Under the pieces are notes generated by a model. The model made no database searches, was not told the DNA's origin, and worked only from the letters and a program-made list of their open reading frames with translations. This document shows, piece after piece, positions 1-30,414 of a stretch of 64,000 bases of DNA (positions are counted from its first letter, which is position 1; each line of letters starts with the position of its first letter). Origin of the DNA: a plasmid. The stretch lies in sequence record NZ_CP024444.1. One strand, 5' to 3'. A program made the translations under genes and the position numbers.

Positions 1-10
1 TGATTATCTA

Positions 11-544
11 TTGAAGTTTTTGCGCTATGCATTAGTGTTTTTATCATTGGTGTGGGTTTTTTATGCCTTGTTAAATTTGTATGCATTAGCTTCAGCAAGT
101 AGCGGTGTACCAAACAAATTTTTCCCAACTCAAGCGCAGCCAACGACGGCTGGTGCTTTTGCCCAATTATTTGTCGCAGGTTTATTATTTACATTTGCTT
201 GGAATTTGCTACCGATGGCAATCATGAGTTCATCGGTAATGGATAGTATTGCAGGGGTTAAGGTTTACTCATTAGGTAGTTATGATACAACCAATCCAAA
301 TTCTGACGTGGTTCGTAAGTTGTCCTATGATTTACTTATCAAGGTTATGCAATTTATTGGATTTATGGGGATGTTTAAAGGCATACGCCTGTGGTACCAA
401 GTATCGCAAGGCACCAATAATGAGCCAAGCTGGAAAATTATGGGCTATTTATTTTGGGGAATGGTGGCATTTAATTTTGAATGGTTCTACTCATTGTTAA
501 CCAGCATTATGGGCTTTGACTTCTTAGGCTTGTTTATGCACTAG
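11..544 (+). CDS. Polytopic membrane protein, unknown function; TTG start at the window edge, so it may be 5'-partial.
   Basis: The ORF has several hydrophobic segments. It sits upstream of a pair of pilin-like genes in the transfer cluster. Confidence 0.4.
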   Translation: MKFLRYALVFLSLVWVFYALLNLYALASASSGVPNKFFPTQAQPTTAGAFAQLFVAGLLFTFAWNLLPMAIMSSSVMDSIAGVKVYSLGSYDTTNPNSDVVRKLSYDLLIKVMQFIGFMGMFKGIRLWYQVSQGTNNEPSWKIMGYLFWGMVAFNFEWFYSLLTSIMGFDFLGLFMH

Positions 545-796
545 CAATAAAATAAATATTTGTAACTGTAATGTGCTCGATAATATCAAATTTTGTCGAG
601 CATTAAATCAATGATGATAGACCCTAGATGCGCAGTAACAAATGGGCTTAGAGCTAAAAAAAGTTCAAAAAAAAGCCATTAAATTTGTGTTTAAATTGTT
701 TTTAATTAAATTTTAATGTGGTATTATCTTACCAAACGGTAACTTTGAGTACCAACCCAACCACCAGTCACTACTTCACAGGTGGTGAATAATTTT

Positions 797-815
797 TAGC
801 GAATAAGAGGCTTGT
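797..815 (+). promoter_or_regulatory. Copy of the conserved upstream motif TTTTTAGCGAATAAGAGG, ending 7 nt before the ATG at 816.
   Basis: The motif is seen directly in the sequence and recurs at ten or more gene starts across the window. Confidence 0.6.
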
Positions 816-1223
816 ATGAAAATTACAGACATTAAGCAGTCTATTAACGACAAAGTTTTAGCAGCATTCGTTCTACTCCCAGCAATTATTGCCACCATGC
901 CAGCCGAGGCTAGTACCTCGCTATCAGATGCCTACAGCGCAGACAAATCTAAAGCAGGCTCATTAACATCGTCAAACGGCGGTAATGCTGACGCAGGCTT
1001 AGGTATCGTCTATAAATTACTATCAGGTGTTTTCATCCTAGTGGGCTTATGGTTCATTGGTACTGGTTTCATGAAAGTTCGTAAAGCATCAAACAGTGAA
1101 GGTCGTGAAAGCCCTACAGGTGGTTGGGTTGCCGTTGTCATTGGCGGTGCCCTAGCGACATCATCTTACATTCTTTGGACCATGTCTAAAACAGTTGAAA
1201 ACGTTACTGGTGCTAGTTCATAA
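816..1223 (+). CDS. Small membrane protein that is VirB2/TrbC pilin-like or IcmC/IcmD (DotE/DotP)-like. It is the paralog of the ORF at 1323-1712.
   Basis: It has a signal peptide, two C-terminal hydrophobic helices separated by a basic loop, and a conserved SKTVE tail. Its position is consistent with a T4SS pilin/IcmD gene. Confidence 0.5.
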   Translation: MKITDIKQSINDKVLAAFVLLPAIIATMPAEASTSLSDAYSADKSKAGSLTSSNGGNADAGLGIVYKLLSGVFILVGLWFIGTGFMKVRKASNSEGRESPTGGWVAVVIGGALATSSYILWTMSKTVENVTGASS

Positions 1224-1252
1224 GAGTAAACGGTTAACACCTTGTCAACTCA

Positions 1253-1290
1253 AAAGCATCTATTCATTAAACTGGGTAGGTGCTTTTTTT
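1253..1290 (+). terminator. Rho-independent terminator (attenuator) after the first pilin-like gene.
   Basis: The hairpin has a gcatcta/taggtgc stem followed by a run of seven T. Confidence 0.55.
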
Positions 1291-1322
1291 AATTACAACA
1301 TAGAAATCTAATACAACCTACA

Positions 1323-1712
1323 ATGGGTGTTGAAATGTCTAATCTACAACAGCTAAAAAAACTGCCTGCCACATTAATTTCATTGCTGATCCTTTTTTAT
1401 GTATCACCAACCTTTGCCGCCCTTGATGCCCTACCTGATTCGCCACACCAAGATGCAACCATTCCCAAAGTAGCAGGACATTTTGATGAAACATTGGGTA
1501 TTGCTTATAAAACCTTTACGGGTTTTGCTGTGGTGGTAGGCTTAATCTTTATTTACGTTGGACTAAGCCGACTTAAAAAAATCAATAACGATGAAATCAG
1601 TGGTAGCGTGGCATCCTGTTTTTGGATATTGGGTATCGGTGGTGCGATGGCATCCTTGGGCGTCGTTTTATTTTCTATGTCTAAAACCGTTGAGTCGGGT
1701 ACGACAGGTTAA
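1323..1712 (+). CDS. Second pilin-like or IcmD-like small membrane protein, paralogous to the ORF at 816-1223.
   Basis: It has the same architecture: a signal peptide, two transmembrane helices and an SKTVESG tail. Confidence 0.5.
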   Translation: MGVEMSNLQQLKKLPATLISLLILFYVSPTFAALDALPDSPHQDATIPKVAGHFDETLGIAYKTFTGFAVVVGLIFIYVGLSRLKKINNDEISGSVASCFWILGIGGAMASLGVVLFSMSKTVESGTTG

Positions 1713-1738
1713 CACTGCCTCGCAAGGAAAATCATATT

Positions 1739-2716
1739 ATGAGTTACCTACCACATGGATTTGGCCGCCTACAGTTAAATGTTCACCGCCCTAACTGGCG
1801 CAATGAAATCAACCTCCATCGCACGCCAAAATATCTAAGTATTCTACATTCAGCTCGCCGAAATACCGCGCAAGCCGCCTGCCACTTTTGCGGTTACCCT
1901 GACGGTGAGTTTTTAGAAATTCACCATGTCAATGGCGATCATGATGATTATTCAGACGGCAATATCAAGTATGCCTGTTCATTGTGTCATCGATTACATC
2001 ATCTAGGGTGGGCTGGTATTAAGTCAAACGGCAAGCTCATTCATTTACCATCATGGCAAACCATAGGCCAACAGGGAAAAGCGCAGCATGAAGTCCATAG
2101 CCTTGAAGTGTTTAATATCATGCAACGCTTTGTCATTATGTCTAAGTTTTTAAGTCAAGACGAGCAAGAGCGTTTTCAGGCATCCGCGCTTATGGAAAGT
2201 ATTTCATCGTTGCTTGCCTGCTTTAAGCATGTTGACTTGCAAAGTGCCTATATCGCCAATAAATATCGCATTGCAAAAATCTTGCAAAATCAGCGCGAGA
2301 TTGAAACTAAAACGCCTGAAGAAAAGGCAGCGGCACTAAAAAAACAAAAAGAAGAGCGTTTAGCTGAACAGCTGCAAGATGATAGCGATGTATTTAATAC
2401 AGAAAAGCTCAACATCATTGATTTGGTCGACGCCTTATGTCAGGTGCATCAGCATCATTTACTAACGAGCCATGACCCAAAACAACCGTCGCCAACCGAC
2501 ACCTTTTTTGCCCAACAAACCACGGGTGAGTTTGGTCGTTTAACCCTATTCTATAATGAGTCAATCTTCGAGCCATTTGAGCCAAACCCTGCTTATTCTC
2601 TCGAAGAGCGTCTGCAAAGCTATCGTGATAGCAATATGTTTACCAAAGATGGGTTAACCAAAATATTGCATGTATCAAGACAAGGTCGGCAGGCAAGTCA
2701 TCAAGCAATCAGTTAG
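1739..2716 (+). CDS. Cys/His-rich zinc-ribbon protein, possibly DotN/IcmJ-like or TraT(R64)-like.
   Basis: It contains a CxxC...HH...CxxCH cluster in CHFCGYPDGEFLEIHHVNGDHDDYSDGNIKYACSLCHRLHH. Its position, after two small membrane proteins and before the large ATPase, matches the icmC-icmD-icmJ-icmB gene order. Confidence 0.35.
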   Translation: MSYLPHGFGRLQLNVHRPNWRNEINLHRTPKYLSILHSARRNTAQAACHFCGYPDGEFLEIHHVNGDHDDYSDGNIKYACSLCHRLHHLGWAGIKSNGKLIHLPSWQTIGQQGKAQHEVHSLEVFNIMQRFVIMSKFLSQDEQERFQASALMESISSLLACFKHVDLQSAYIANKYRIAKILQNQREIETKTPEEKAAALKKQKEERLAEQLQDDSDVFNTEKLNIIDLVDALCQVHQHHLLTSHDPKQPSPTDTFFAQQTTGEFGRLTLFYNESIFEPFEPNPAYSLEERLQSYRDSNMFTKDGLTKILHVSRQGRQASHQAIS

Positions 2717-4155
2717 TGGCGATGTCAGTGAGTGAATTAACCCGTCAGGCGATATTTGAGTTTTTTAACCCAACTGGTCAACCTTTAACAGCCTTTGACC
2801 AATTTAAAGCTGACTATGCTTGGTGTTTTGATGTAGATATCGAAAATAGCCCACAGTTACCTTTTATTCAAGCATGGTGTAATAGCGACTTGGAACGGGT
2901 AACTGCGGCTAATTTTTTTCATCAGCCGCCAGCGGTCAAAGACTTGCCGTGTTTTGCCACCAAAGACAAAACCCTAACCTTATTAAGCACCCGTTCGGTA
3001 TGGGGACCTATGGTGTCCCGTGCTGAAAGTGTGCCGAGTTTTCTACCTGTGCCACCGCCTGCCCAATTAAACCTAGCTTATCATGAGCAGTTATTAGGGT
3101 ATGTGGTGCATCTACCTATGCGCTTGTCATCCCATCAGCAAGGTTGGTTGTCTTTGGTCAATCCCCCCATGTTATTGGAACAAGGAAAACCTTATTTTTT
3201 ATTCACCGCCAATGAGTATGAGTTCTTAAAGCGCATGCGTATACTGACATCCGCGCATGCCTGCCTGCCTATCAGTATGTTTGCGCTATCAGGTAGTTAT
3301 CTAGCCGGGCAATTAAATAAGTATCTACCCACACCATCACGCAATCAATACGCTGGTAACCCTGAATTACTAGCTATCGCCCAAGCCATATATCTACATA
3401 CTTTTTCTGCCCAATCACCGATAAACGTCAATGACGAGCAGGGCACCCATGGCATTCAGCATCTAGCCAGCTACCAAACCTTGCTGAATTTTTATCGCCA
3501 TTTGGCCAATCGAGAAGAGCGATTGCATCAGCTCATGGCATTAACCTATGGCTTGATTGCCACTAAACCGAGTAAATATAACAATCAGCCAAACCTAATT
3601 AGTCCTGAATGGTTTACTTTTAATGTATTGGCAAATGCAGACAAAGAACAGGCTAGACGCGAGCGCAAAGCCCATAATGGTTTGGGTTATTACCTTGTTA
3701 GTCGTTCAAACAAGGGTTTGGCTATTAACCTTGCGGCTTTGGCTGTCTGCGGCATTATCACCGATGAAGAGAAGATAACCGCCAAAGATGATGAGGCAAC
3801 CTCACCTGTCAAATCTCGTTCCAAGGCTAAAAAATCAACCAAGCCTGTCGAAAATAATGGCTTAGAATTGCTATTTGATGCCATCGAAAATGCCTTTGTT
3901 GTTGAAGCGGATAATGAATTAAGTGAGATCAAAGACATTTTATTGGAACCGGAAAACTATTTAGCCTTAAAACCACAGTTGATGCGACATTCAACATTAA
4001 TGCTTTCAATCCTTGAAGCCTGTATGTTTTCCGAACAAAGTGACGACAGCTCGTCACAACAACAGCAGGAACAAGAAAAACCACAGGTTCAAGACACAGG
4101 CGATGACAGCCAGTCTAACGCTATCGAAGACAAGAAGGTGCATCAAGAAGGTTAA
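2716..4155 (+). CDS. Hypothetical soluble protein with an acidic Gln-rich C-terminus.
   Basis: It is a long ORF with codon usage consistent with its neighbours, but no recognisable motif. Confidence 0.4.
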   Translation: MAMSVSELTRQAIFEFFNPTGQPLTAFDQFKADYAWCFDVDIENSPQLPFIQAWCNSDLERVTAANFFHQPPAVKDLPCFATKDKTLTLLSTRSVWGPMVSRAESVPSFLPVPPPAQLNLAYHEQLLGYVVHLPMRLSSHQQGWLSLVNPPMLLEQGKPYFLFTANEYEFLKRMRILTSAHACLPISMFALSGSYLAGQLNKYLPTPSRNQYAGNPELLAIAQAIYLHTFSAQSPINVNDEQGTHGIQHLASYQTLLNFYRHLANREERLHQLMALTYGLIATKPSKYNNQPNLISPEWFTFNVLANADKEQARRERKAHNGLGYYLVSRSNKGLAINLAALAVCGIITDEEKITAKDDEATSPVKSRSKAKKSTKPVENNGLELLFDAIENAFVVEADNELSEIKDILLEPENYLALKPQLMRHSTLMLSILEACMFSEQSDDSSSQQQQEQEKPQVQDTGDDSQSNAIEDKKVHQEG

Positions 4156-4176
4156 CCAGCTCACGTCTTTATCCCT

Positions 4177-5592
4177 TTGATGCATTTTGCAAAAACGAAA
4201 CAGGATTTTCATACCATGCCAAACCACCCACTGACAGTTAAACCCTTAGCCTTAGCAACCCTTTTCTTAGCAAGCTTACCTATCTCTGCTTTTGCTTGCG
4301 GTGTAACTGATAAGCCACCCGTCAAAAAAATTCCCTCAAACTATATTGCCGCCAGCAATAATCAATGCTTAATTTATAAATTTCTTCAAGATGATGCTGT
4401 TAAAAGCGTTACATGGACAGGTGAGTGTAAAGACGGCTATGCATCCGGTCATGGTATCGCTACTTGGTTCGATGGTGAAAACAAACCAATACTTCGTGTC
4501 GATACAGAACTCGACCACGGTGATATGAATAAGAAAGCGATAATGGATTGGGAACAAGAAAACGGCTGTGAATATAAACACATGGAAACCGATATGCGTG
4601 ATAACAAACAACGGGGGCATGCGGTTATTGAGTTTACCGATGGTAATAAGTATGTTGGTGAATCAAATGACCCTAATGTACCCAATAAAGGTGTTTTTAC
4701 TTGGGGGAAAGGTAGCCAATGGTCGGGTGATCGATATGAAGGGCAGTTTTTGAATGGTATACGGGATGGGTATGGTGTATATACGTCAGGCATCTATACC
4801 GATTGGGTTAACCAAGGCATTGACTTTAAAACCGCAAAATTTAACAACCCAACTGATTTTGATGATTACGAAGGGTTTCGCTATGAAGGTCAATGGAAAG
4901 CCGGTAACAAAGACGGTAAAGGTAAATTTTATAGTAAAGATTTTAATTATGAAGGCGATTGGGTGGATGACCAAAAAAATGGCAACGGTGTGGGCTACTG
5001 GCCTGGAAAAAAGGCAACTTATGAAGGGCAATGGAAAAATGACCAGCCTAATGGAAAAGGCAAGCTGACCACTGAAGAATTACGCTATGAGGGTGATTTT
5101 ATAGATGGCAACCGACATGGCCATGGCGTTTATTACTTGTACAAAGAGAATTCAAAATATGAAGGGGAATGGAAAGACGATCAAACCAATGGGAAAGGTA
5201 TGCTTACCCGTAATGATGACAAATGGTACCAATGGTACCAAGGGGACTTTCAGCATAGTAAAATTTCAGGGAAGGGTGAGCTGCATCTTGCAAGTGGTAC
5301 CGTAGCCGTAGGTAGTTTTATTGGTGGTTATGTGTGGGGCTTTAACACCGTCACTGTCCCAAAACCTGCCTATGATAACCCTAAAGCAAAACGTACTCCA
5401 AGTCTTGGTAAGTGGGTAGACCCAAACACCTATGTTGAACAAGGTTGGTTTTTTAATGATAAATTAGTCTTTAACTGTAAAAGCGAGCAAGATTGCTATA
5501 AGATTGCCAAAACCGATCCTGTTAAAAACAAATTCATTAAAGACACCGAGAAAAAAAGAGAATACTTTGAATTAAATTCAACGCTCGATTAA
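4177..5592 (+). CDS. MORN-repeat lipoprotein; the start is probably at 4216.
   Basis: It has a lipobox LPISAFAC-G and repeated YEGQWKNDQPNGKGK / YEGEWKDDQTNGKG MORN-type units. Confidence 0.55.
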   Translation: MMHFAKTKQDFHTMPNHPLTVKPLALATLFLASLPISAFACGVTDKPPVKKIPSNYIAASNNQCLIYKFLQDDAVKSVTWTGECKDGYASGHGIATWFDGENKPILRVDTELDHGDMNKKAIMDWEQENGCEYKHMETDMRDNKQRGHAVIEFTDGNKYVGESNDPNVPNKGVFTWGKGSQWSGDRYEGQFLNGIRDGYGVYTSGIYTDWVNQGIDFKTAKFNNPTDFDDYEGFRYEGQWKAGNKDGKGKFYSKDFNYEGDWVDDQKNGNGVGYWPGKKATYEGQWKNDQPNGKGKLTTEELRYEGDFIDGNRHGHGVYYLYKENSKYEGEWKDDQTNGKGMLTRNDDKWYQWYQGDFQHSKISGKGELHLASGTVAVGSFIGGYVWGFNTVTVPKPAYDNPKAKRTPSLGKWVDPNTYVEQGWFFNDKLVFNCKSEQDCYKIAKTDPVKNKFIKDTEKKREYFELNSTLD

Positions 5593-5616
5593 ATACACCC
5601 ATTACAATCAATAAAA

Positions 5617-5643
5617 CAAAACAGGCTTAATAGCCTGTTTTTT
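5617..5643. terminator. Bidirectional rho-independent terminator between two convergent genes.
   Basis: The hairpin aaacaggct-taat-agcctgttt is followed by a run of T. Confidence 0.6.
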
Positions 5644-5669
5644 CGTACAGTTACTCGGGTAATGGTGGG

Positions 5670-7259
5670 CTAAAATGGCGACATGGTCATTTCATTTTGT
5701 TGTGCCATCGTTGGGGCAGGGGTTGGTGGTTCAGGCTCATTGACCAAGGTGTTGCGACCTTTTGGCGAGATTAAATCCAAGTCTTCTTGCGAATAGAACT
5801 CACGAATTGGTACATAGCTAAGTTTGCCAAAATTCGCATCAAGGCTATCAAGCATGGCTTGGGTTTCAAAATTCTTCACTTGAGGGTCGTCGGTCAAGCT
5901 TACGATGGTTTGGCGTGTCGATTTGCGCCACAAGTCTTTGATACTATCATCCCCTGACGTCAACCCTTTTTCTGCAATTAACTTTTCGACCAAACCACCA
6001 GCGTTGATGCCAGGATAGTCACTGATTAATTTAAACTCATAATCATCAGATAGGGGCTTACCGCCTTGGCTTGCGGCAATTTCTTGCATAAAGTTTTCAT
6101 AAGACCCAGCGTATTTAGGCTCAAACATTTTAAATTCATTGCCATTTTTATGGTCAAGCACGGCAATTTTGGCATCTAAATCCCAAAAGATGTTACGTTT
6201 TTCGTGATTAGGATGAATGACATTGTATTCACTCAATACCTCACGGGCTTGATCGACACGCTCACTGATATCATCAAACGCATTCCACACTTGCTCGCTA
6301 TGTTCAATGCTCACTTGGTATTGCGATTTACCTGTCGTTTGACTAATGTGTTCAACTAAGTGCTTATGAAAGGTGTTATCATCAAAAGCCAGTTCTTTGG
6401 CAAAATAAGTATTTAGGTCAGCCGATGTATTAAGATTTAGCTCGCCAATCTTTACCTTGCCCAATTCATCATGGTCAACGTTCACATCAAATTGCACTTT
6501 TGGTGGGTGCGTCGCATCATTTTCATGATGACGAGTGAAGGCTGCGCTAACTTGCTGCATGCCGATAAACTGTTTGGCAAAATCTTCACCAAGTTTAGCT
6601 TTGGGGTCGCTTATGCCATCGCTAATGATTTTACTAAATTTGTCACTCACAATGTCTGCCGCTTGCTGCGCATCGATGCCATAGTCTTCAGTTTTATCCG
6701 CTAGATGACGAGCCGCGATAATCGACGTGGTAACCTCACTTTCTTCAAAATAATCACGCAACTGGCTTACCAGCTTTTCACCTTCGGCACCAGCCCCGAT
6801 TTTATCTAACGTTTCACGAATTTCTTCGCCTATATCATGGGTCGTGACTTCCCAATTACCGCCGTTATTACGAAACGTCTGCTCGATAAAGCGTCCTTCA
6901 TCAAAGTTCAGCATGTCAATCTTGGTTTCTTCAACCCCGTTAACCACCGTGCGCTTAATCTCAATCCCGTATTCTTCCAACACTTCATTAGGAATATTTT
7001 CAATGGTAATTTGCTTATCTTGGTTTGGCGTGGTGGTGGTAATTTGATTGCCATCTAAGGTGAAATGGGGGTTATTGCTGACCAAATCTGCGGTATAAAA
7101 CGCCTTATTGTCATTATTGATGACGATGACTTGGTCAGGTTCTAGGTATTTTAGGTTATCAAACGTATTGCTACTTTGCTCGGGGTCAACTTTGTAGTCT
7201 TTACCGTCTTTACCTCGGACAATATCGGCAGTTACGCCATAAGAAAAGTTTTGTGGCAT
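5670..7259 (-). CDS. Hypothetical acidic 529-aa protein. It is the only minus-strand gene that carries the TTTTTAGCGAA upstream motif.
   Basis: It is a long ORF. The reverse-complemented motif lies at 7278-7294, directly upstream of its ATG. Confidence 0.45.
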   Translation of the reverse strand: MPQNFSYGVTADIVRGKDGKDYKVDPEQSSNTFDNLKYLEPDQVIVINNDNKAFYTADLVSNNPHFTLDGNQITTTTPNQDKQITIENIPNEVLEEYGIEIKRTVVNGVEETKIDMLNFDEGRFIEQTFRNNGGNWEVTTHDIGEEIRETLDKIGAGAEGEKLVSQLRDYFEESEVTTSIIAARHLADKTEDYGIDAQQAADIVSDKFSKIISDGISDPKAKLGEDFAKQFIGMQQVSAAFTRHHENDATHPPKVQFDVNVDHDELGKVKIGELNLNTSADLNTYFAKELAFDDNTFHKHLVEHISQTTGKSQYQVSIEHSEQVWNAFDDISERVDQAREVLSEYNVIHPNHEKRNIFWDLDAKIAVLDHKNGNEFKMFEPKYAGSYENFMQEIAASQGGKPLSDDYEFKLISDYPGINAGGLVEKLIAEKGLTSGDDSIKDLWRKSTRQTIVSLTDDPQVKNFETQAMLDSLDANFGKLSYVPIREFYSQEDLDLISPKGRNTLVNEPEPPTPAPTMAQQNEMTMSPF

Positions 7260-7277
7260 GGGAATATCCTATCATGG

Positions 7278-7294
7278 TTCGCTAAAAATTAATT
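7278..7294 (-). promoter_or_regulatory. Conserved upstream motif (TTAATTTTTAGCGAACC) preceding the minus-strand gene.
   Basis: The sequence, read as a reverse complement, matches the recurring motif. Confidence 0.55.
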
Positions 7295-7349
7295 ACCCGA
7301 TAAAGGGTGATTAAATATTAGCATACTCACATGCGCTTAACTATGAAGT

Positions 7350-9144: not shown

Positions 9145-9149
9145 TTTGA

Positions 9150-22539: not shown

Positions 22540-22699
22540 TCAGTCTTTGTTAAATTGCGATTGTATCACCCCTTAAAAGCCATTTGATTTACTATATTTT
22601 TGTGGCAACCCTAAAAATATACGCTATAATTAAACCGATTGTTTTTAAGGGTGATTAAACAAACCCTTTACTCATAGTGTACCCATTTTAAGCACTATT

Positions 22700-22722
22700 T
22701 TAATTCTTAGCGAACTAGAGGT
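22700..22722 (+). promoter_or_regulatory. Motif copy TTAATTCTTAGCGAACTAGAGG before the GTG at 22727.
   Basis: The sequence matches the recurring motif. Confidence 0.55.
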
Positions 22723-22726
22723 CGTT

Positions 22727-24850
22727 GTGACTTACCCAACAAAAAAATCACTGAAGGTGGAACCAAAACCCTTATATGTTGCTATCAGACTGTCTGTGTT
22801 GACAGCACTTGCAATGTTAGGCTCTACCCAGCTTGTATCAGCAAGCGGTACCTCTACTACCACCAAACAAACTACCCAACAAGCCCAAGCAACCGCAAAA
22901 CAAGCCCAACAATCAGCCGCATCCGCACCAGCCTCCACGAAGGGTGGCTTATCGTCAAATTTAAGCGGTATGACGGATGACCAAGTCAAATCCTTTTACC
23001 AAAAAACTGGCGTGTTGCCCGGCACCGCTATTATGCCGTGGCCGTCTAACCTTACCACGGTCACAACCCGTTATGGGGGATTTCGTTGGCGTGGAGGCGC
23101 ACCAGGTTTTCATGGTGGCTTGGATATTGTTGGGGGTTCGCCTCAATTAAAAATAACGGATAACAATTCCTTCGTATTAAATAGCGGTGTGATTGGTGGG
23201 GGTGGTGGTAACACGGTCACCATCCAACGTAAACATGGCGATTGGTACACGTACATGCATTTGCGTAACCCGTCACCACTTAGAAACGGTCAGCCTGTTA
23301 GTTTAGGGCAATTGGCTGGTATTGAAGGGATGTCCGGTGGCACCAGTTCGGGTGTGCACTTGCACTTAGGTTATGGTATTTCAAACCCTGCTGAAGCGTC
23401 ACGTCGACGCAATTACTGGCTTGGTGTCTCACCGTCAAAGAGTTTATTTGCCCCATCTAAATTTATCCGTCAAGGTGAAGGGGGTAAATTAACCACTGAT
23501 CCAACGCCTTATTATAATTCTGACTTACCTATCAGCGAGAAGTCTATTCAATATTATAACTGGCTCGGTGGTTCAATCAGACAGCAATTTAATACCCTGT
23601 ATGGCGCAAACCTACCCGTAAATCAAAGTTACGCTAGACCCATTACGCGCACCATACCAGCCTTAGGTGTGTTTAATACCAATTATGAGTGGACGCCTGA
23701 AAAATTGGCTGCTGCTCGCGCATCTATTGTTGAAGGCGGTGTGATCGGTGACATGACGGGGTATTCAGGTGCGTTTAACCAAGGGGGTATGTCATACCAA
23801 GTTCTAGCAAGCTTTATTTCATCATCCGACGGTCTTGACTTTGGTACCTTACCGCAACCAGCCCTGCCACCCGATATCGAACACATGAGCGTCAATCAAA
23901 TTGTTGACCAAATAGACTCACAGCGATATGGGAATGTGGAATGGGAAAAAGCAGCCATGAAGTTATCTTCAAAAGGGATGCTGAATGAATACCTATTCAT
24001 GACTGCCACAGAAAACTTTATACGTCATAAAAACAAAGAATTAAAGAAACGGGTGAATGGTTTGATAGCTGCCTTTACGTCAGCAAAACTGTATGAGTAC
24101 AACAAAAAGATTGAAGCCATAAAAGTCATGGCGGATGCCGAAGTGGTTCCTGGCATCATCGATCTGCAGCTTTCAGATTTGGGGTATGATGGTAGTATTG
24201 AAAGTGGCGATGCTTCACAGGCTGGTTCAGCTATTGATATCAACTCATTACCAAATGATATTAAGGCATTAACCCAAGCCCTGCTTGATACCATTTCGCA
24301 AGGTGAGTCATCGGCAGGACCAAAAGGCTATAACGCCTATAATTCAGGTTCTAGTAAAGGCTCGTGCTCTAAGCCAGCTGGTGGTATGTATAATTTCTCA
24401 ACCATGACCTTAAGAGAAATAGCCAATCTTAGATACGCTGGTGGTTGTAAAGGTATTTTTGCGGCTGGTAAATACCAAATTATCCCTGATACACGCCTAG
24501 GACGTATTCAAGCTGGTGTTGTTGGCTGGAATACCCTGTATACGCCTGAAGCGCAAGAAAAAATGGCAATGTCACTACTTATGGCACGTATTGGTAAATT
24601 TGTTAAATACGGCACAGGTAGCGTTTCAGATGCCCAGTACAACCTTTCAAAAGAATGGGCATCAATTGCAATACCGCCTAGTTACAAATCAAGATATGGA
24701 CGTTATATCGGACCTGCGAGCTGCCCTAACGGTAAAAAAGGTGTGTCTTTTTATCAGGGTAATGGTAATAATGCTGCGTTCTGTACCATGACCAATAATT
24801 TGACAGCTATTTTGACAAAAATTAAACAAGTACATTCGGGCGGTCAATGA
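22727..24850 (+). CDS. Large secreted peptidoglycan hydrolase with an M23 (LytM) metallopeptidase domain and an additional C-terminal hydrolase-like domain.
   Basis: It has a signal/transmembrane segment. HGGLDIVGG, GDWYTYMHLRN and GVHLHLGY match the M23 HxxxD...HxH motifs. The C-terminal 250 aa are unassigned. Confidence 0.6.
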   Translation: MTYPTKKSLKVEPKPLYVAIRLSVLTALAMLGSTQLVSASGTSTTTKQTTQQAQATAKQAQQSAASAPASTKGGLSSNLSGMTDDQVKSFYQKTGVLPGTAIMPWPSNLTTVTTRYGGFRWRGGAPGFHGGLDIVGGSPQLKITDNNSFVLNSGVIGGGGGNTVTIQRKHGDWYTYMHLRNPSPLRNGQPVSLGQLAGIEGMSGGTSSGVHLHLGYGISNPAEASRRRNYWLGVSPSKSLFAPSKFIRQGEGGKLTTDPTPYYNSDLPISEKSIQYYNWLGGSIRQQFNTLYGANLPVNQSYARPITRTIPALGVFNTNYEWTPEKLAAARASIVEGGVIGDMTGYSGAFNQGGMSYQVLASFISSSDGLDFGTLPQPALPPDIEHMSVNQIVDQIDSQRYGNVEWEKAAMKLSSKGMLNEYLFMTATENFIRHKNKELKKRVNGLIAAFTSAKLYEYNKKIEAIKVMADAEVVPGIIDLQLSDLGYDGSIESGDASQAGSAIDINSLPNDIKALTQALLDTISQGESSAGPKGYNAYNSGSSKGSCSKPAGGMYNFSTMTLREIANLRYAGGCKGIFAAGKYQIIPDTRLGRIQAGVVGWNTLYTPEAQEKMAMSLLMARIGKFVKYGTGSVSDAQYNLSKEWASIAIPPSYKSRYGRYIGPASCPNGKKGVSFYQGNGNNAAFCTMTNNLTAILTKIKQVHSGGQ

Positions 24851-24894
24851 TAATACCGATATCACTAAACCAAACATTTATATAGGAATAACTA

Positions 24895-25428
24895 ATGAAA
24901 AAATTACTCCCTTTATTATTGATTAGTTCAACTGCTTTTGCTGGCTACCCTGACGAGCCAGCAACTAAGCCTAGAGGCGGTTCATCAGCTGGCATTAACT
25001 TTAGCGTTTGTCATTACAATGGTAGCCCGATTAATTACTGTGGTGCCAAAAATGCCAATACCTTGCACAGTTTTGATAAAACCAAACCTACCTTTTTAGG
25101 TCGTTATATCCCTATTGTGTTAAAACCTAGTGAGCTTGCATCCGGCAAAATCCCTAAAGATACACGCGGATTTTTACTGTATGACCCTGCGGCTAAAGCT
25201 GCCTATACATTCCCATGGGTTCTACAAACGCAAGAGGCAACGCCAGGTTCGCGTGCCTATCCTGTTCAAGTGCATTACAACCTAAAAAATTACCCAAAAA
25301 ATGCGATAGTATTTCAAGGTAATTTAACGTCAGAAGATTACGCTGAATATTCATCCTCATCTGTATCGGACGACGTGGTCTTTGTATTCAGTGACGAAAA
25401 AATTTTTGCGAATATTGAAGCCCAATAA
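24895..25428 (+). CDS. Secreted or lipo-protein, one of a tandem paralog pair.
   Basis: It has a signal peptide MKKLLPLLLISSTAFA. It is similar to the next ORF, for example FLLYDPAAKAAYTFPWVLQ versus FVLFDPVKQKAFTLPWLLR. Confidence 0.45.
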   Translation: MKKLLPLLLISSTAFAGYPDEPATKPRGGSSAGINFSVCHYNGSPINYCGAKNANTLHSFDKTKPTFLGRYIPIVLKPSELASGKIPKDTRGFLLYDPAAKAAYTFPWVLQTQEATPGSRAYPVQVHYNLKNYPKNAIVFQGNLTSEDYAEYSSSSVSDDVVFVFSDEKIFANIEAQ

Positions 25429-25441
25429 TGTGAGTACACCC

Positions 25442-26008
25442 ATGAAAAAACTACTAATCTCATTGGGTATTGTTGCCAGTACCTTAACTACTTTCACCCA
25501 AGCCGATGCCAGTATGGTTTTGGCTGGCATGGTGGTAAAAGGCGGTAGTCTAAAGCCATTACCCATTAAAGTTGATGTGTGCAAACAAAAAGGGGTAGGG
25601 GTTGATTACTGCAGTAGCAATAACATTGCCCTCATACGTGCCGGGGCAAATCACAAGCCTGCGAACTTTGACCATAATAAATATGTGCCTGTGGTCTTTA
25701 CGCCCTATGAAGTAAAAACAGGTGCGCTACCCAGTGATGCCAAAGCGTTTGTATTGTTTGACCCAGTGAAGCAAAAAGCCTTTACCTTGCCTTGGCTGCT
25801 ACGTCAACCACAACAAAAAGGTACTAACCAGCGCATCCCAATTAGTTTTCAGTTTAAAGATATTCAAGGTGCGCCATCCGACGTATTTGCAGTAGTGGCA
25901 GACTTGATTGCTGATAAAAACAACACCTTTATTTATAAAAATGCCCTTGAAGTGAATTATTTAATTTCTTTTGATGGTAAGAAATATTATCTTGGTGGCG
26001 ATTTTTAA
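25442..26008 (+). CDS. Secreted protein, the second member of the tandem paralog pair.
   Basis: It has a signal peptide MKKLLISLGIVAS. The tracked ORF start at 25382 was rejected in favour of the Met that begins the signal peptide. Confidence 0.45.
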   Translation: MKKLLISLGIVASTLTTFTQADASMVLAGMVVKGGSLKPLPIKVDVCKQKGVGVDYCSSNNIALIRAGANHKPANFDHNKYVPVVFTPYEVKTGALPSDAKAFVLFDPVKQKAFTLPWLLRQPQQKGTNQRIPISFQFKDIQGAPSDVFAVVADLIADKNNTFIYKNALEVNYLISFDGKKYYLGGDF

Positions 26009-26048
26009 GGTGGCGAGTCATAGCACCTTCTCGGTTTGCTCGTTATTT

Positions 26049-26086
26049 CTGCCAAGAAAATAGCGAGTTTTTTTTATAAAAATCCG
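26049..26086 (+). terminator. Rho-independent terminator.
   Basis: The hairpin ctcgttattt...aaatagcgag is followed by a run of eight T. Confidence 0.5.
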
Positions 26087-26162
26087 TAGTAGTTGTCTGT
26101 CTAATAAAGGAAATACAAACTATTGACAATGATGGTCTGACAGACTACTATTCTTGGTAAAT

Positions 26163-26189
26163 AATTAATTTTTAGCGAACAAACGAGAG
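26163..26189 (+). promoter_or_regulatory. Motif copy AATTAATTTTTAGCGAACAAACGAGAG before the ATG at 26195.
   Basis: The sequence matches the recurring motif. Confidence 0.6.
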
Positions 26190-26194
26190 TCATA

Positions 26195-27262
26195 ATGGGA
26201 CTGTTATCAAAGTCAGGCAAATTGACTGGCAAGGCAGTTAAACACACCGTATTGTTACCACTATCGGTAGCCGTACCTAATGTGGTTTACAGTAATGCCA
26301 AGTTTATAAAATCAACGCTACAAAGCGTACCTTATCCTTTTTGCCCAGCTTGTGGCGAGTCTAAACTTACACCGATTGAATGGCATAAACTTCCTCAATC
26401 ATCCATGACTTATCTTGATGATACACCTGTTCCTGAATTACCAACTGATTATTCACCGACAGGGGTGTGGCGATGCGGTGAATGTGGTTATACCTTACGC
26501 GTCAATAAACCCACGCTACACGCCCTGCAGATTGCGCTAACCAAAGTCGGTCGCCAAGTCTATGAAACTACCGACATCCATAATCGACAAACCCCTGAAG
26601 CCAATAAGCGCATCCATGATATGGTTTCATCTCGCGTACTAGCCGCCCGTTTATTTGCTGGCGTGTTTGGTATGTTTATTTTGTTTATGATGTATGCCGC
26701 CTATCAAGGCAAACTCATGTTTTTGCTATCGCTAATTAGCATATCAAGCGTGGTATTGCTGTTATCAATTAAATCAGGCTACCGTGCTTGGCAACTTTAC
26801 ACAGACAACATGTTCGCCCCCGATGCTAAGGCGCAATTTCTGTATTGGTTAAAAAACCACAAATGGTATCAATTCCCCATCGATGACGGCTACGATCCGT
26901 TTGATTTGCCCGTGGAAAACCCACAAGATGAGGAATATGACGAGATTGAATGCGAAGAGTTGACACCGACGCAAGCCGAACAGATCCTTGATGATCAATT
27001 TGAGCCTGAAGATGATGGGTTTGTCGACAACCAACCTCAAGATGGCGAAGATTTAGAGCACGACGCAGAAGACGAAGAGCTAAACCATAATTATGCTAAC
27101 TCTGTTAAAAAAACCAATTATGGCACCAGTCAATCGATGAAGCCGGATGTTGTTGTAAAACCTGTGTATGAAGAAGAGTTAACCGAGCAGGGCGACACCA
27201 CGCCTGAAGCAACACAATCAGTCAGTTTAGTGAAAACCGATGTAAGTAACCCACAACCGTAA
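26195..27262 (+). CDS. Membrane protein with an N-terminal zinc ribbon (CPACG...CGECGY), a transmembrane region and a highly acidic C-terminus.
   Basis: The Cys pairs and hydrophobic segments were read from the translation. Confidence 0.45.
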   Translation: MGLLSKSGKLTGKAVKHTVLLPLSVAVPNVVYSNAKFIKSTLQSVPYPFCPACGESKLTPIEWHKLPQSSMTYLDDTPVPELPTDYSPTGVWRCGECGYTLRVNKPTLHALQIALTKVGRQVYETTDIHNRQTPEANKRIHDMVSSRVLAARLFAGVFGMFILFMMYAAYQGKLMFLLSLISISSVVLLLSIKSGYRAWQLYTDNMFAPDAKAQFLYWLKNHKWYQFPIDDGYDPFDLPVENPQDEEYDEIECEELTPTQAEQILDDQFEPEDDGFVDNQPQDGEDLEHDAEDEELNHNYANSVKKTNYGTSQSMKPDVVVKPVYEEELTEQGDTTPEATQSVSLVKTDVSNPQP

Positions 27263-27269
27263 TAGGTTG

Positions 27270-27298
27270 TTAATTTTTAGCGAATTAATCTAAAGAGA
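27270..27298 (+). promoter_or_regulatory. Motif copy TAATTTTTAGCGAATTAATCTAAAGAGAT before the ATG at 27303.
   Basis: The sequence matches the recurring motif. Confidence 0.6.
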
Positions 27299-27302
27299 TA
27301 CC

Positions 27303-28358
27303 ATGAAAAATCCCAACGTCACGCGAAACACGTTTGCGACTTTATTGGTGGTGCTCGCGAATTCACCAGCCTTCGGTGGGCTGGCTAATATGAGTTCGCA
27401 ACAACTAGCCTCGTTTGCCAATCAAAATGTCGCATTCGGTAATAACTACGCTAACCCTAATGTGGGGATGCAAAGCAACAATGGCTATGTGACCGTAACG
27501 GGTATGCCTGAACCACAATTAACCCCAAAGCAATTGGATGCGTTAAGATTGGTTAATAAACTTGGCGGTGATCCAAGCCGTCGCACGGCAACTGGCTCAA
27601 GTTATAACGCTGTATCGTACACCACGCCAGCGCGTTCACCGAGTCAGATTACCATAAGCCGTTATTATCCGGCTAATGGCAATCGGGCATCTATGCCTAT
27701 TAATCAAACCCTGCCTGTTAATAAAGCCTTGCAAAACCAACAACCGTATGTGGTACGTCCAATGCCACAGCAACCACCAAGTTTTACACCAAATAAATCG
27801 GCAGCCACCCAAGAACCAATATTTAGACCGTTAAGCTATTATCAGGCGCAGTTGCCACAACCTGTTAGCCCAACTGAAGACTATACCGTGACAACAATTA
27901 AGGGGTCAGATTACCCAATCGGTAAGCCTACGCTGGCATGTGTGGCACAAGCCGCCCAAAGACAAGATGTTCCGGTAGACGTGATGCTTGCGATTAATAG
28001 CATCGAACAGGGTCAAATTGGCGAAATGCCATCTAAGCGCGGTGGTGGTTATCACATGGGTGCGTTTCAGATTAATACTACCCAAATGCCACGCCTTCAT
28101 ACCGATAAATCTACGCAATTTGATGTACTAAATCGCGGTTGCTTTAATGCCCAAATTGCAGCGGTTTTACTAAGCGACGCTATACACAAAGATACGGGCA
28201 AATATGCCAACTGGGATAAATATGCCAAAGCTGCTGGATATCATTCTTGGAACCCAGGACCTAATGCTGTGTATCGCCAAAAACTCATTAATTACACCCA
28301 GCAATGGCGGGCTTGGTTGCGTGAAAATAACCTGACACAGTATATCTCTGATTTTTAG
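27303..28358 (+). CDS. VirB1-like lytic transglycosylase (SLT domain) with a signal peptide.
   Basis: LAINSIEQGQ...GYHMGAFQINT matches the SLT/VirB1 signature ES...(D/Y)xGLMQIN. Confidence 0.6.
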   Translation: MKNPNVTRNTFATLLVVLANSPAFGGLANMSSQQLASFANQNVAFGNNYANPNVGMQSNNGYVTVTGMPEPQLTPKQLDALRLVNKLGGDPSRRTATGSSYNAVSYTTPARSPSQITISRYYPANGNRASMPINQTLPVNKALQNQQPYVVRPMPQQPPSFTPNKSAATQEPIFRPLSYYQAQLPQPVSPTEDYTVTTIKGSDYPIGKPTLACVAQAAQRQDVPVDVMLAINSIEQGQIGEMPSKRGGGYHMGAFQINTTQMPRLHTDKSTQFDVLNRGCFNAQIAAVLLSDAIHKDTGKYANWDKYAKAAGYHSWNPGPNAVYRQKLINYTQQWRAWLRENNLTQYISDF

Positions 28359-28435
28359 GAAAAAAGTGCATAGCATGTGTCATTAATTGAAATTAGTTCA
28401 AAAACTATAGAGGTGAATATGAAAAAATTAGCAAT

Positions 28436-28792
28436 ATGCGGTTAAAAAAAACTGGGCAAGTAACCTTGTATTTTTTCTTTGCTAATAATAACAATGGGCT
28501 AGTTTTCTATAAAATAGTAAGATATTTTATGCTACAAAACATACGAGATACATATATTGAGCGTACTCGTCAAGGTCAAGATGAAGTATTGCTTAAAATC
28601 ATTAGCCCAAGTTACTGCTATGCTAAATGTAATAAAAAAGATGTGCCACTTTTTATTTGTACGCTTAGTGACAACGATGAAACAATCAATATTAGTGATA
28701 ATTTAAAATTTTTCAGAAATGAAGAGGATGCTTATTGGGCAGCCGTCAATTCAGGCAATAAGAATTTACCGATGACAAGACCTAAGACATGA
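28436..28792 (+). CDS. Hypothetical small protein; the start is uncertain.
   Basis: The evidence is the ORF alone. Confidence 0.25.
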   Translation: MRLKKTGQVTLYFFFANNNNGLVFYKIVRYFMLQNIRDTYIERTRQGQDEVLLKIISPSYCYAKCNKKDVPLFICTLSDNDETINISDNLKFFRNEEDAYWAAVNSGNKNLPMTRPKT

Positions 28793-28871
28793 ATCTTTGA
28801 AGGTGTTTTTCAAAAGCGGTAGATGGAAAGCGAGAAGTTTGTTAAATTTGAAGAAGAAGTAGGACATCATT

Positions 28872-29093
28872 ATGGAAGAAATTAGCATCTCAATGAAACT
28901 CTTTATAATAGGTAATGCGGTATTTTTCGTATTACTTTTTGGCAGCAGAGTATACCGCTTTTTTGAACTTCGCCGTCGTGAAAAGCAGTGGGATCGTGAA
29001 GAATTAATTGATAAATTTGGTGAAAATTATCAAAATAATCCTGAATACCTTGAATATAAAGCCTTGATGAAAAAGGTAGGGATTAAGGTTTAG
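28872..29093 (+). CDS. Small single-pass membrane protein.
   Basis: It has a hydrophobic helix followed by a charged tail. Confidence 0.35.
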   Translation: MEEISISMKLFIIGNAVFFVLLFGSRVYRFFELRRREKQWDREELIDKFGENYQNNPEYLEYKALMKKVGIKV

Positions 29094-29142
29094 TAAGTTT
29101 AAGCGACAAACAATGACGTAAATTAATTGATAAGGAATCAAA

Positions 29143-29670
29143 ATGTCTTTTTTAAACCAGGTTAAAGGTTTATTTGTGAATGGCCAAAAGGTAGCTGATA
29201 TTGAAGAAGATTCAGTGATTGAAATTAGACCAAAAACGGTAAATGCCTCAGTTGGTAATGGATGTGTTAATCATGGTGTTCATAACAGCCCTAATAGTAA
29301 TGTAGTAAATAGCTTCATTGGGAACCAACGTATTCAAGCTAATTCTGTAGGTGCGGTTATTGGTGACAATGCAAATATCTGTGTTAATCAGTCAAAAGTT
29401 ATTGTCGATGGCTTTGAATACACCCTATCTGATTTTACTAATGATGAAGTGATAAAGATTGAAATTTATGGTGATATCGATGAGCTTAAAACAAATAGTG
29501 GTGATGCAGTCGTTAATGGTAATGTAAATAGCGTTAAAACACAAAGCGGCGATATTGAGATTATTGGTGAAGTTAACGGTGACATAAAAACTATGTCAGG
29601 TGATGTAAAAGTTAAGGGCAATATTCATGGTAAGGTTTCTACGATGTCAGGTGACGTTAAACATAGTTAG
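29143..29670 (+). CDS. Bactofilin-like (DUF583-type) beta-helical repeat protein.
   Basis: It has tandem units GDAVVNGNVNSVKTQSGDIEIIGEVNGDIKTMSGDVKVKGNIHGKVSTMSGDVK with G-x-V/I periodicity. Confidence 0.45.
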   Translation: MSFLNQVKGLFVNGQKVADIEEDSVIEIRPKTVNASVGNGCVNHGVHNSPNSNVVNSFIGNQRIQANSVGAVIGDNANICVNQSKVIVDGFEYTLSDFTNDEVIKIEIYGDIDELKTNSGDAVVNGNVNSVKTQSGDIEIIGEVNGDIKTMSGDVKVKGNIHGKVSTMSGDVKHS

Positions 29671-29693
29671 TTTCCGAACTATTTATTTTTAAC

Positions 29694-29718
29694 TAACTTT
29701 TAGCAAATATATAGGAGA
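29694..29718 (+). promoter_or_regulatory. Motif variant AACTTTTAGCAAATATATAGGAG before the ATG at 29724.
   Basis: The sequence matches the recurring motif with one substitution (GCAAA instead of GCGAA). Confidence 0.5.
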
Positions 29719-29723
29719 ATTGT

Positions 29724-30347
29724 ATGCAACATGAGCATAAAAAAACTACTTTAGCGGTTTCAGAGCAATGTAGTCAAAATGAACCGCTAGAACAAATAGC
29801 AGATGACTTTAGAAAATATATGGGCGCTGCCCCACGAGTCGAACATTATATGAGCGATGAAAACAATACAAGTATTAGCCTTGAACAGCAGAGCAAATTA
29901 TATGAAATTTGGCTTAATGATCCGCTTGAAATTGATGAAAACAATTATCACCCACTAGAGTGCTCAATTCTTATAGATTATACTACTAAATTAGCAGATA
30001 AATATGGCACGCTTGATAAGGCGTTAGATAAATATGGTGATTTAAAGCTTGCTATTAGTGAACAACACCGTAGTATAGCCATGGCTGATAAAATGGCAGC
30101 TCTCGCTTTACATCAGATGTTAAAAGTTAATGACACTCATGCAGTTATGCGAGTCGTTGACGGTTGGATTTATTACTATGTAACCGATAAAAACGAATAT
30201 ACCCAAGGTGTGTTTGTACTTGATGACTGCAATAGAGCGACACACAATACGAAAGTTGAAATAAGACGTGTCATCAGACGACTTGAAGATGAAATTGAAA
30301 AAGGTTTTTTAATTTTGTCTAATAGTTATAGCTATTTAGAAAATTGA
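29724..30347 (+). CDS. Hypothetical protein.
   Basis: It is an ORF carrying the upstream motif. Confidence 0.4.
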   Translation: MQHEHKKTTLAVSEQCSQNEPLEQIADDFRKYMGAAPRVEHYMSDENNTSISLEQQSKLYEIWLNDPLEIDENNYHPLECSILIDYTTKLADKYGTLDKALDKYGDLKLAISEQHRSIAMADKMAALALHQMLKVNDTHAVMRVVDGWIYYYVTDKNEYTQGVFVLDDCNRATHNTKVEIRRVIRRLEDEIEKGFLILSNSYSYLEN

Positions 30348-30384
30348 TATCTTAACCAAATTTAGAGACTTAAAATTATAGATA

Positions 30385-30414
30385 AAAACCTCACTAATTT
30401 TAGTGAGGTTTTTT
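30385..30414 (+). terminator. Rho-independent terminator.
   Basis: The hairpin aacctcacta-atttt-agtgaggtt is followed by a run of six T. Confidence 0.65.

Follow-up and report, generated by a model that had tools for sequence, protein, structure and literature searches.

What machine is encoded at the left end of the plasmid sequence NZ_CP024444.1, and does it serve to move DNA between cells? The whole stretch analysed, 64,000 nucleotides of that record read on one strand, is referred to here as the window. A first-pass annotation, made from the sequence letters, had taken positions 1 to 30414 for a type IVB (IncI/Dot-Icm) transfer region in a Moraxellaceae-like backbone. We conclude that the window very probably holds the central part of a divergent conjugative type IV secretion system of mating-pair formation class I (MPF_I), belonging to a mega-plasmid like pMOXF1 of Moraxella osloensis and moving DNA between cells. 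The type IVB interpretation was borne out by the homologies of three proteins, DotO, DotL and DotN, whose genes are as follows.

9150 to 12359, plus strand: DotO/IcmB-TraU ATPase, VirB4-like, 1069 amino acids (aa), with full-length TraU/DotO homology.
12372 to 15317, plus strand: DotL/IcmO-TrbC type IV coupling protein, 981 aa, matching PDB entry 6sz9_A at E=1.8e-104.
1739 to 2716, plus strand: DotN/IcmJ homolog of 325 aa whose HNH-type zinc-finger motif is complete, recognised by a family profile against PDB DotN.

DotO matched traU of IncI1 over 96% of its length at 24% identity (E~1e-57 in tblastn, 6e-63 in phmmer), with Walker A (GRPGSGKS) at residue 511 and Walker B at residue 853. Its sole F-type match in NCBIfam, TraC-F, scored 16.9 bits against a cutoff of 567. 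DotL has two N-terminal transmembrane (TM) helices and Walker A at residue 146, and matched the NCBIfam model TrbC_conju (NF041447) at 298.7 bits and E=9e-89, below the equivalog cutoff of 800 bits. The pairing of a DotO/TraU-sized ATPase with a DotL-type coupling protein, as first described, was thus upheld by TraU (E~1e-57) and DotL (1.8e-104). The first-pass annotation had also named an outcome that would speak against it, in which the two proteins fell into MPF_F or MPF_G clades and no small protein matched DotN or IcmD. The MPF_F/MPF_G placement was rejected: the ATPase and the coupling protein fell with IncI1 TraU/TrbC and Legionella DotL, the DotN match stood at E=1e-20, and TraR was the best IncI1 match of the small membrane proteins described below.

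The third protein had been described as Cys-rich and DotN-like, in agreement with a five-member family profile that matched Legionella DotN (PDB 5x42/6sz9) at E=1.4e-20 over ~165 residues; the window protein by itself matched NCBIfam IcmJ_DotN weakly (6.6e-6). Its motif reads C48xxC51..H62H63..N75..C80xxC83H84..H88, and the pattern CxxC..E-x-HH..D-x-H..N..CxxCH..H was kept in all five lineages of the clade, which span 37-61% GC and whose DotN proteins are only 20-22% identical to the window copy. Pfam HNH aligned over its full model at sub-threshold scores (13.2-18.2 bits against a cutoff of 21.4), with E=0.099 for the window DotN and E=0.003 for the best family member. In the profile alignment, Legionella DotN kept the cysteines and had every histidine replaced, and IncI1 TraT had no HNH motif. 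A literature search found no mention of DotN together with HNH. The complete HNH motif in this clade's DotN appears to be a new detail and a testable lead on DNA processing, with putative catalytic activity.

The Moraxellaceae-like backbone proved to be that of M. osloensis. Window 9150-15317 was 99.6% identical to M. osloensis plasmid pMOXF1 (CP040258.1, 248 kb, circular), and window 1-30476 was 98-99.6% identical, in collinear blocks (local blastn) at 1-15634, 16882-28407 and 28680-30476. Three differences separate the two: a 1,247-bp insert at 15635-16881, a small indel near 28.4 kb (28408-28679), and the cargo beyond 30476. Every gene listed in the first-pass annotation was found at the place given for it, so the span of 1 to 30414 held for the genes; its right end did not, as the block of pMOXF1 homology runs to 30476. 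Nearly all genes of the transfer region are labelled 'hypothetical protein' in the pMOXF1 record, and the plasmid family is present on many contigs from public sequencing runs.

It had been observed correctly that DotC, DotD, DotH, DotG and DotB are not in the window; all are present in the sister plasmid pMOXF1. Directly upstream of the position of the window edge, pMOXF1 encodes DotI/IcmL (Pfam, 3.5e-23), DotH/IcmK (1.5e-50) and DotG/IcmE (2e-12), followed by a DotF-slot protein and then the DotE-slot protein, whose gene is truncated in the window by its edge; contigs carrying an identical hairpin gene also have DotI/H/G upstream. Elsewhere on pMOXF1 are DotB/TraJ (8e-39), DotC/TraI (6e-24) and DotD/TraH (6.5e-22) beside a ParM gene, DotM/IcmP (PF23127, 4e-32), and DotA/TraY (TIGR04346, 190 bits against a 100-bit cutoff). 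With DotI/H/G, DotB/C/D, DotM and DotA, pMOXF1 therefore has a complete type IVB core in three clusters. By its nucleotide identity, window 1-30476 would be the central segment, about half, of the transfer region of a pMOXF1-like M. osloensis mega-plasmid.

Upstream of the DotA cluster, pMOXF1 156870-169294 (loci L003/L006) carries a same-strand run of very large genes (755, 906, 1498 and 881 aa). Three of the four, the 755-, 906- and 1498-aa proteins, were scanned and gave no Pfam or NCBIfam match at E<=0.01.

Relatives were sought with DotO. A single-protein scan of species-representative genomes returned no relatives; an alignment-based rescan of these genomes returned 11 loci, namely Massilia and two metagenome-assembled genomes at 36% identity, seven Acinetobacter at 32%, and one IncI. 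Among 1.84 billion representative proteins searched exhaustively with HMMER, the DotO family comprised 922 clusters, the closest at 47-49% identity; these closest clusters lie on metagenome contigs only, which have about 40% GC and no PLSDB counterpart. The nearest annotated plasmid was pAJ_082-2 of Acinetobacter johnsonii (NZ_CP079793; DotO 32% identity).

Upstream of and around DotN lie the small membrane proteins and a terminator.

11 to 544, plus strand: 3' part of a gene for a polytopic membrane protein at the DotE/IcmC-TraQ position, cut by the window edge; 202 aa and intact in pMOXF1.
816 to 1223, plus strand: hairpin membrane protein 1, TraR/IcmD(DotP)-like, 135 aa, with a signal/TM segment and two TM helices.
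1252 to 1287, plus strand: intrinsic-terminator-like hairpin and T-run, a putative attenuator with a 15-pair stem between the two hairpin genes.
1323 to 1712, plus strand: hairpin membrane protein 2, 129 aa, paralog of the protein at 816-1223, with a signal/TM segment and two TM helices.

The two paralogous membrane proteins and the attenuator terminator had both been recognised at first pass, and both were recovered: the proteins are 41% identical over 74 aa (BLASTP, E=5e-15), and the stem at 1252-1287 has a folding energy of -22.6 kcal/mol (z=-4.2 against shuffles). The label 'pilin' was given up, as no structural or sequence test could confirm it. The protein at 816-1223 is probably the major copy. 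The family has 242 members of ~127 aa each in a 5.8-billion-protein database, on plasmids of many Proteobacteria, all without a Pfam domain and named only hypothetical or 'conjugal transfer protein'; an NCBIfam scan of the hairpin proteins likewise gave no match. The best IncI1 match of a deep hairpin hidden Markov model (HMM) was TraR, a weak match whose alignment keeps register throughout the hairpin (E=7e-5 against a set of 49 proteins, E=0.0036 among the open reading frames [ORFs] of related loci); by hhalign, the two families were related with 13% probability only. An AF2 model of the protein at 816-1223 gave a helical hairpin with a mean pLDDT (predicted local distance difference test) of 57.7 overall and about 70-77 in the hairpin, and its Foldseek search against PDB found non-specific helical hairpins only, none at E<=0.001.

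The DotE-slot gene is collinear with positions 10785-11393 of pMOXF1 locus L001, and homologs occupy the equal position in the Acinetobacter, Massilia-type and sister loci. The hairpin-family HMM matched the DotE-slot proteins as two tandem hairpin modules, and no significant match came from comparing the DotE-position family directly with IncI1 TraQ in hhalign. Profile, position and topology thus support a putative assignment of the hairpin and DotE-slot proteins to the IcmD/IcmC-TraR/TraQ slots, which hhalign and the fold search cannot confirm.

In the Acinetobacter locus, too, the equivalent hairpin gene has a stem-loop with a T-run 3' of it, and its counterpart in the Massilia locus has a GC-rich stem there, so that an attenuator after the hairpin gene looks like a conserved design. 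In the metagenomic sister locus L031 (4021-5709) there are at least three hairpin paralogs (143, 103 and 114 aa) and the DotN gene is on the opposite strand; the number and arrangement of the small genes therefore vary within the clade.

Beyond DotL and a split gene described below, a second set of genes begins with a repressor.

17550 to 17969, plus strand: XRE/RstR-like helix-turn-helix repressor (HTH_3 2e-5; RstR 5e-5).
18952 to 19962, plus strand: TrbB-equivalent, membrane-anchored DsbG/DsbC-like thiol-disulfide isomerase with CPYC (DsbG 1.7e-14).
19963 to 22539, plus strand: three tightly packed genes for proteins of 331 aa (one TM helix), 199 aa and 322 aa, in the same order in sister lineages.
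22727 to 24850, plus strand: 707-aa protein with an M23 metallopeptidase domain, its large C-terminal part being uncharacterised (Pfam M23 2e-7; PDB M23 1.7e-4).
24895 to 26008, plus strand: two paralogous secreted proteins of 177 aa (24895-25428) and 188 aa (25442-26008), with Sec-type signal peptides (BLASTP E=3e-20).
26195 to 27262, plus strand: membrane protein of 355 aa that has two TM helices and double CxxC motifs; faint match to NF033887 TraX (E=0.006).
27303 to 28358, plus strand: TrbN/VirB1-type specialised lytic transglycosylase, 351 aa, catalytic domain at about residues 205-351.
28436 to 30347, plus strand: small tail genes of 118, 73, 175 and 207 aa, candidate members of the transfer system only.

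The repressor gene is followed by an AT-rich gap of ~1 kb with many short repeats. The next gene had been called a DsbC/TrbB-like CPYC thioredoxin, which the DsbG match (1.7e-14) bears out; its product has a homolog beside DotM/TrbA in pAJ_082-2 (E=3e-26) and in sister loci (2e-57), and matched IncI1 TrbB weakly around CxxC (E=0.001). The 331-, 199- and 322-aa proteins have homologs in the same order in the sister loci L029/L031 (4e-7, 1e-11 and 4e-19), and the 199-aa family matched the pAJ_082-2 gene at the equal position marginally (E=0.014). None of the three had a Pfam or NCBIfam match, and their family profiles found nothing significant in PDB, with a CopG-like hint at E=0.45. The M23 protein has a homolog beside DotA/TraY in pAJ_082-2 (phmmer 2.6e-23; three-lineage profile 4e-43) and in sister loci (4e-80). 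On sister contigs, the order is DotL, a small gene, the TrbB-like gene, genes for ~310, 185 and 270 aa, and the large M23 protein. Judged by this order and the homology, 18952-24850 is a conserved module of the sub-clade and not cargo; the conserved TrbB-331-199-322-M23 arrangement appears to be a new detail of these systems.

Both peptidoglycan hydrolases reported at first pass (M23 and a VirB1-like transglycosylase) were verified. The transglycosylase matched NF010463 TrbN at 2e-23, IagB at 6e-5 and PDB EtgA at 1.3e-8, and has the invariant Glu and the FQINT motif. Homologs of the 355-aa membrane protein stand directly after DotL in loci L009-L011 (about 1e-10) and occur in L029 (1.5e-18), and it is a possible TraX analogue. 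The family scans gave no match for the secreted paralogs and no significant match for the tail genes. By eye, the C-terminal half of the 175-aa tail protein (29143-29670) consists of short repeats, G-D-[VI]-x-[VI]-x-G-x-[VI]-x-G, with no family match. Fifteen concatenated unknown proteins found nothing in a sequence search of PDB, and six concatenated unknowns had no match in a word-indexed search, a weak negative in which giant proteins may crowd out remote homologs. Downstream genes that had first seemed orphan-like later gained homologs in sister contigs.

The stretch between DotN and DotO, and the one that follows DotL, are the variable parts.

2716 to 4155, plus strand: protein X, 479 aa, named for its slot between DotN and DotO.
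4216 to 5592, plus strand: secreted or lipoprotein MORN-repeat protein with an N-terminal signal sequence (Pfam MORN 1e-34).
5670 to 7757, minus strand: insert of a 529-aa orphan gene (5670-7259) and a degenerate IS200-like Y1 transposase gene (7350-7757; Pfam Y1_Tnp 3.6e-11).
8043 to 9080, plus strand: staphylococcal-nuclease-fold (SNase) lipoprotein (Pfam SNase 1.3e-6; lipobox MTAC).
15181 to 17402, plus strand: gene of 274 aa, split by an insertion sequence (IS) and intact in pMOXF1 (L001 26182-27006).
15635 to 16881, minus strand: IS200/IS605-family element of 1,247 bp with tnpB only (Pfam OrfB_IS605 and a Cas12f1-like TNB domain).

Protein X found only its own cluster in the 5.8-billion-protein database and one weak homolog in the sister locus L031 (E=1.4e-8); the proteins in the X slot of the Acinetobacter and Massilia-type loci have no sequence relation to it, and its single-sequence AF2 model (pLDDT 31.7) was unusable. 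IncM and IncI plasmids also differ at the ORF between traR and traU (PMC6112013). The MORN, minus-strand and SNase genes were found in the Moraxella lineage only. The minus-strand pair occurs on those Moraxella contigs that extend far enough and not in other lineages, and searches of PDB and the protein database with concatenated unknowns found no homologs of its 529-aa protein. The MORN gene is absent from the Acinetobacter, Massilia-type and sister loci and is a lineage-specific, dispensable accessory gene; the plasmid family is polymorphic here, the gene being reduced to 86 aa in three contigs (L022, L023 and L025).

The nuclease had been described as a thermonuclease lipoprotein as in IncI1 nuc. 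The SNase lipoprotein stood (1.3e-6), and it is probably a periplasmic or surface nuclease as judged from fold and lipobox. The homology to IncI1 did not stand: the IncI1 gene at that place is annotated as phospholipase-D family and not as a thermonuclease, so the likeness to nuc is one of function. A perfect sigma-70 consensus lies at 7751-7778 on the plus strand (TTGACA, 16 nt, TATAAT; 12/12), just past the minus-strand insert and ahead of the SNase gene, dotO and dotL. The tnpB element has three diverged copies elsewhere in pMOXF1, at 81-88% identity.

To the right of the transfer genes, window 30477-59570 holds ~29 kb of IS-flanked cargo in place of the pMOXF1 gene for a YadA-like trimeric autotransporter adhesin. 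The cargo includes a histidine-utilisation cluster at 33504-41756 (hutH, hutU, a permease, an arginase-family gene and hutI), a formamidase gene at 52174-53418, and transposases of the IS256, IS3 and IS5 families. In one NCBI assembly (L024 13407-20408), an IS256 transposase ends the operon after the 479-aa gene, and TnsE-like, AbiV-HEPN, TIR and methyltransferase genes lie 3' of it. The sister plasmid pMOXF1 carries the macrolide resistance genes msr(E)/mph(E).

How would these parts work together? By homology, an MPF_I mating channel would be energised by DotO, which is the VirB4-like ATPase in the inner-membrane complex, and by DotB, whose gene lies elsewhere, and would be fed its substrate by a DotL-DotM-DotN coupling complex in which DotN is the zinc-finger partner. 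The TrbB-like DsbG/C protein would fold disulfide-bonded subunits, the M23 peptidase and the TrbN transglycosylase would open the cell wall for assembly, and the lipoprotein nuclease would fill the slot of the nuc gene of other MPF_I plasmids. The terminator may raise the first hairpin protein relative to the downstream products and so yield an abundant subunit. The genes may form two operons, 1-17.4 kb and 18.9-28.4 kb, split by the repressor and an AT-rich control region; the XRE/RstR-type repressor and the gap at 17.4-18.9 kb would then control the second operon. The promoter at 7751-7778 may restore transcription of the nuclease gene, dotO and dotL past the minus-strand insert. We presume that DotI/H/G/F lie upstream, and DotA, DotM and DotB/C/D elsewhere, on the window's own replicon as they do in pMOXF1.

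Transfer of DNA is inferred from the plasmid context, the accessory set and the experimentally conjugative Acinetobacter relatives, and several observations weigh against it. Relaxase families had no match among the scanned window ORFs or ten large scanned pMOXF1 unknowns, and a search of the gap at 17.4-19.0 kb for inverted and direct repeats of an oriT-like structure found short AT-rich repeats only. MOB-suite classes pMOXF1 as non-mobilizable. The core parts beyond the window were shown in the 99%-identical pMOXF1 and related contigs, not in the window's own replicon, where an IS element splits one operon gene (274 aa). About one third of the genes have no assignable function, and our literature search found no transfer test of any Moraxella plasmid of this type.

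A rival reading is a type IVB machine that translocates effectors in interaction with a host or competitor, in the style of Legionella and Coxiella, and does not conjugate DNA. M. osloensis is animal-associated, no relaxase is recognisable, and the operon holds lineage-specific orphans (the 529-aa and 479-aa proteins). We nevertheless hold this highly improbable. The genes are plasmid-borne among typical MPF_I accessories (TrbB, TrbN, a nuclease and a faint TraX-like protein; PMC6112013), and the nearest described relatives transfer DNA though they too have no known relaxase (PMC8490738). The adaptors IcmS/IcmW and LvgA, like IcmQ/R and DotU/IcmF, were not detected here by sequence, and the MORN protein, having a Sec signal, is not a cytoplasmic type IV substrate. 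The insertions raise another thought, that the window's replicon holds a decaying, non-functional remnant, interrupted by IS elements and cargo and kept by linkage only. The tnpB element splits the 274-aa gene, a minus-strand insert with a degenerate Y1 transposase gene sits inside the first operon, the 29 kb of IS-flanked cargo has replaced the adjacent adhesin gene of pMOXF1, and related contigs include MORN deletions and one operon cut by IS256 and defence cargo. Yet the core genes that can be recognised in the window are all full-length ORFs with intact Walker motifs, 98-99.6% identical to pMOXF1; the split gene may be dispensable, because no counterpart was detected in sister lineages; and the consensus promoter downstream of the minus-strand insert could restore dotO and dotL expression. 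Decay therefore seems quite improbable, and a system that conjugates DNA remains our preferred reading.

How, then, would its DNA be processed? A motif search of all ORFs for HUH/relaxase signatures found none in genes linked to transfer. The Y1 transposase-like gene was considered as an HUH relaxase and rejected: by eye, the second His of the HUH motif and the C-terminal catalytic Tyr of the gene at 7350-7757 appear lost, and it is absent from other lineages. Outside the window, the transfer operon of every lineage begins with a divergent, tyrosine-recombinase-like gene.

Operon-head gene: L001 122-1534 (pMOXF1 72192-73604); L005 10925-12145; L009 757-1965; L011 977-2170.

Its protein has a conserved R-K-R-H-Y set and the invariant motifs GLRP.EW, K..HGR, YSTRHQ and FGH...T...Y, with a sub-threshold Phage_integrase match (8e-4); the family profile found nothing in PDB. 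Its candidate role is DNA processing or multimer resolution. A UvrD-like helicase is also common to pMOXF1 (127401-129095, minus strand) and pAJ_082-2 (90893-92449, minus strand; E=1e-72), and the pAJ_082-2 copy is placed within the transfer region, with the M23 gene on one side and the TrbB-like gene on the other. As no relaxase was found, the HNH-type DotN and the operon-head gene may serve as leads on DNA processing. It is conceivable, if rather doubtful, that the clade processes DNA without a canonical HUH relaxase, with DotN and the tyrosine-recombinase-like protein nicking and piloting the DNA, or with one of the 331-, 199- and 322-aa proteins as a new relaxase family.

These findings extend the transfer systems of MPF_I mega-plasmids from Acinetobacter to M. 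osloensis, a common bacterium of skin and laundry and a laboratory contaminant. Typing tools call the plasmid non-mobilizable and the family occurs on many contigs, so that its cargo is probably more mobile than has been estimated. They also add independent, deeply diverged lineages to the MPF_I plasmids without a known relaxase, which narrows the relaxase candidates to a few genes conserved across all. In or near this region, candidates are the HNH-type DotN, the operon-head gene and the 331/199/322-aa module (conserved in the window and its sisters); the UvrD-like helicase is also shared by pMOXF1 and the Acinetobacter plasmid.

Among known systems, IncI1 (R64/ColIb-P9 type; pSH146_87) and IncL/M (pCTX-M3) resemble the window in full-length TraU-TrbC homology at ~24% identity, and IncI1 also in the slot order traQ-traR-(traS/T)-traU, with TraM/N/O homologs upstream in pMOXF1. 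Besides trbB and a nuc gene, IncM and IncI plasmids have a variable ORF that separates traR from traU; IncM plasmids have trbN in addition (PMC6112013). The nuclease of the window is of the SNase fold whereas the IncI1 gene at that position is of the phospholipase-D family, and the window DotN keeps the HNH histidines whereas TraT is without them. Phmmer searches with IncI1 NikA, NikB, Sog (LPD7), ExcA, TraE/F/G, TraV/W/X and TrbA/B found none in pMOXF1 or the window at E<=0.01; a fragment of PilV, the thin-pilus adhesin, likewise had no match there, the other pil genes and Rci not being queried. With Legionella Dot/Icm, the window shares homologous DotL (E=2e-104) and DotN (E=1e-20) of the solved coupling complex. 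The Legionella system differs in translocating effector proteins and in a DotN without the HNH histidines. Its gene order, icmL-K-E-G-C-D-J-B, is mirrored by that of pMOXF1 and the window.

The Acinetobacter mega-plasmids come closest. pAJ_082-2 shares with the window and pMOXF1 the order DotI-DotH-DotG-(DotF slot)-(DotE slot)-hairpin-DotN(HNH)-X-DotO-DotL, which also occurs in Massilia-type and metagenomic sister loci; the terminator-like hairpin after the hairpin gene; homologous TrbB-like and M23 proteins; DotD/DotC/DotB beside ParM; and the tyrosine-recombinase-like gene at the operon head. The window differs in its two hairpin paralogs, an unrelated X, and the MORN, SNase and minus-strand genes that separate DotO from DotN. 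Its TrbB and M23 genes follow DotL but those of pAJ_082-2 are near DotM and DotA, and the transfer genes form three clusters in pMOXF1 but one region in pAJ_082-2. The group III-4a mega-plasmid pALWED1.1, whose map matches pAJ_082-2, is MPF_I and experimentally conjugative with no identified relaxase (PMC8490738), and both III-4a and pA297-3 MPF_I mega-plasmids conjugate in experiments (PMC8490738; PMC7885321; bioRxiv 10.1101/2024.01.30.577996). Acinetobacter III-4a thus shares with the Moraxella system both the MPF_I class and the lack of an identified relaxase (PMC8490738), and a 2024 preprint still counts relaxase and oriT among the unidentified parts of III-4a and pA297-3 plasmids (10.1101/2024.01.30.577996); the missing relaxase is a gap common to the Moraxella system and the published Acinetobacter systems. 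The 'poorly described variant' of the first-pass annotation was a fair phrase, as most of the genes are annotated hypothetical and no described system is closer than the Acinetobacter mega-plasmids (PMC8490738). The Moraxella system can be recognised as distantly related to the IncI/Legionella Dot-Icm type and is fairly ordinary; by its homologies, it appears to add a new and deeply diverged member to the MPF_I/type IVB class, one whose closest described kin are the relaxase-less mega-plasmids of Acinetobacter.

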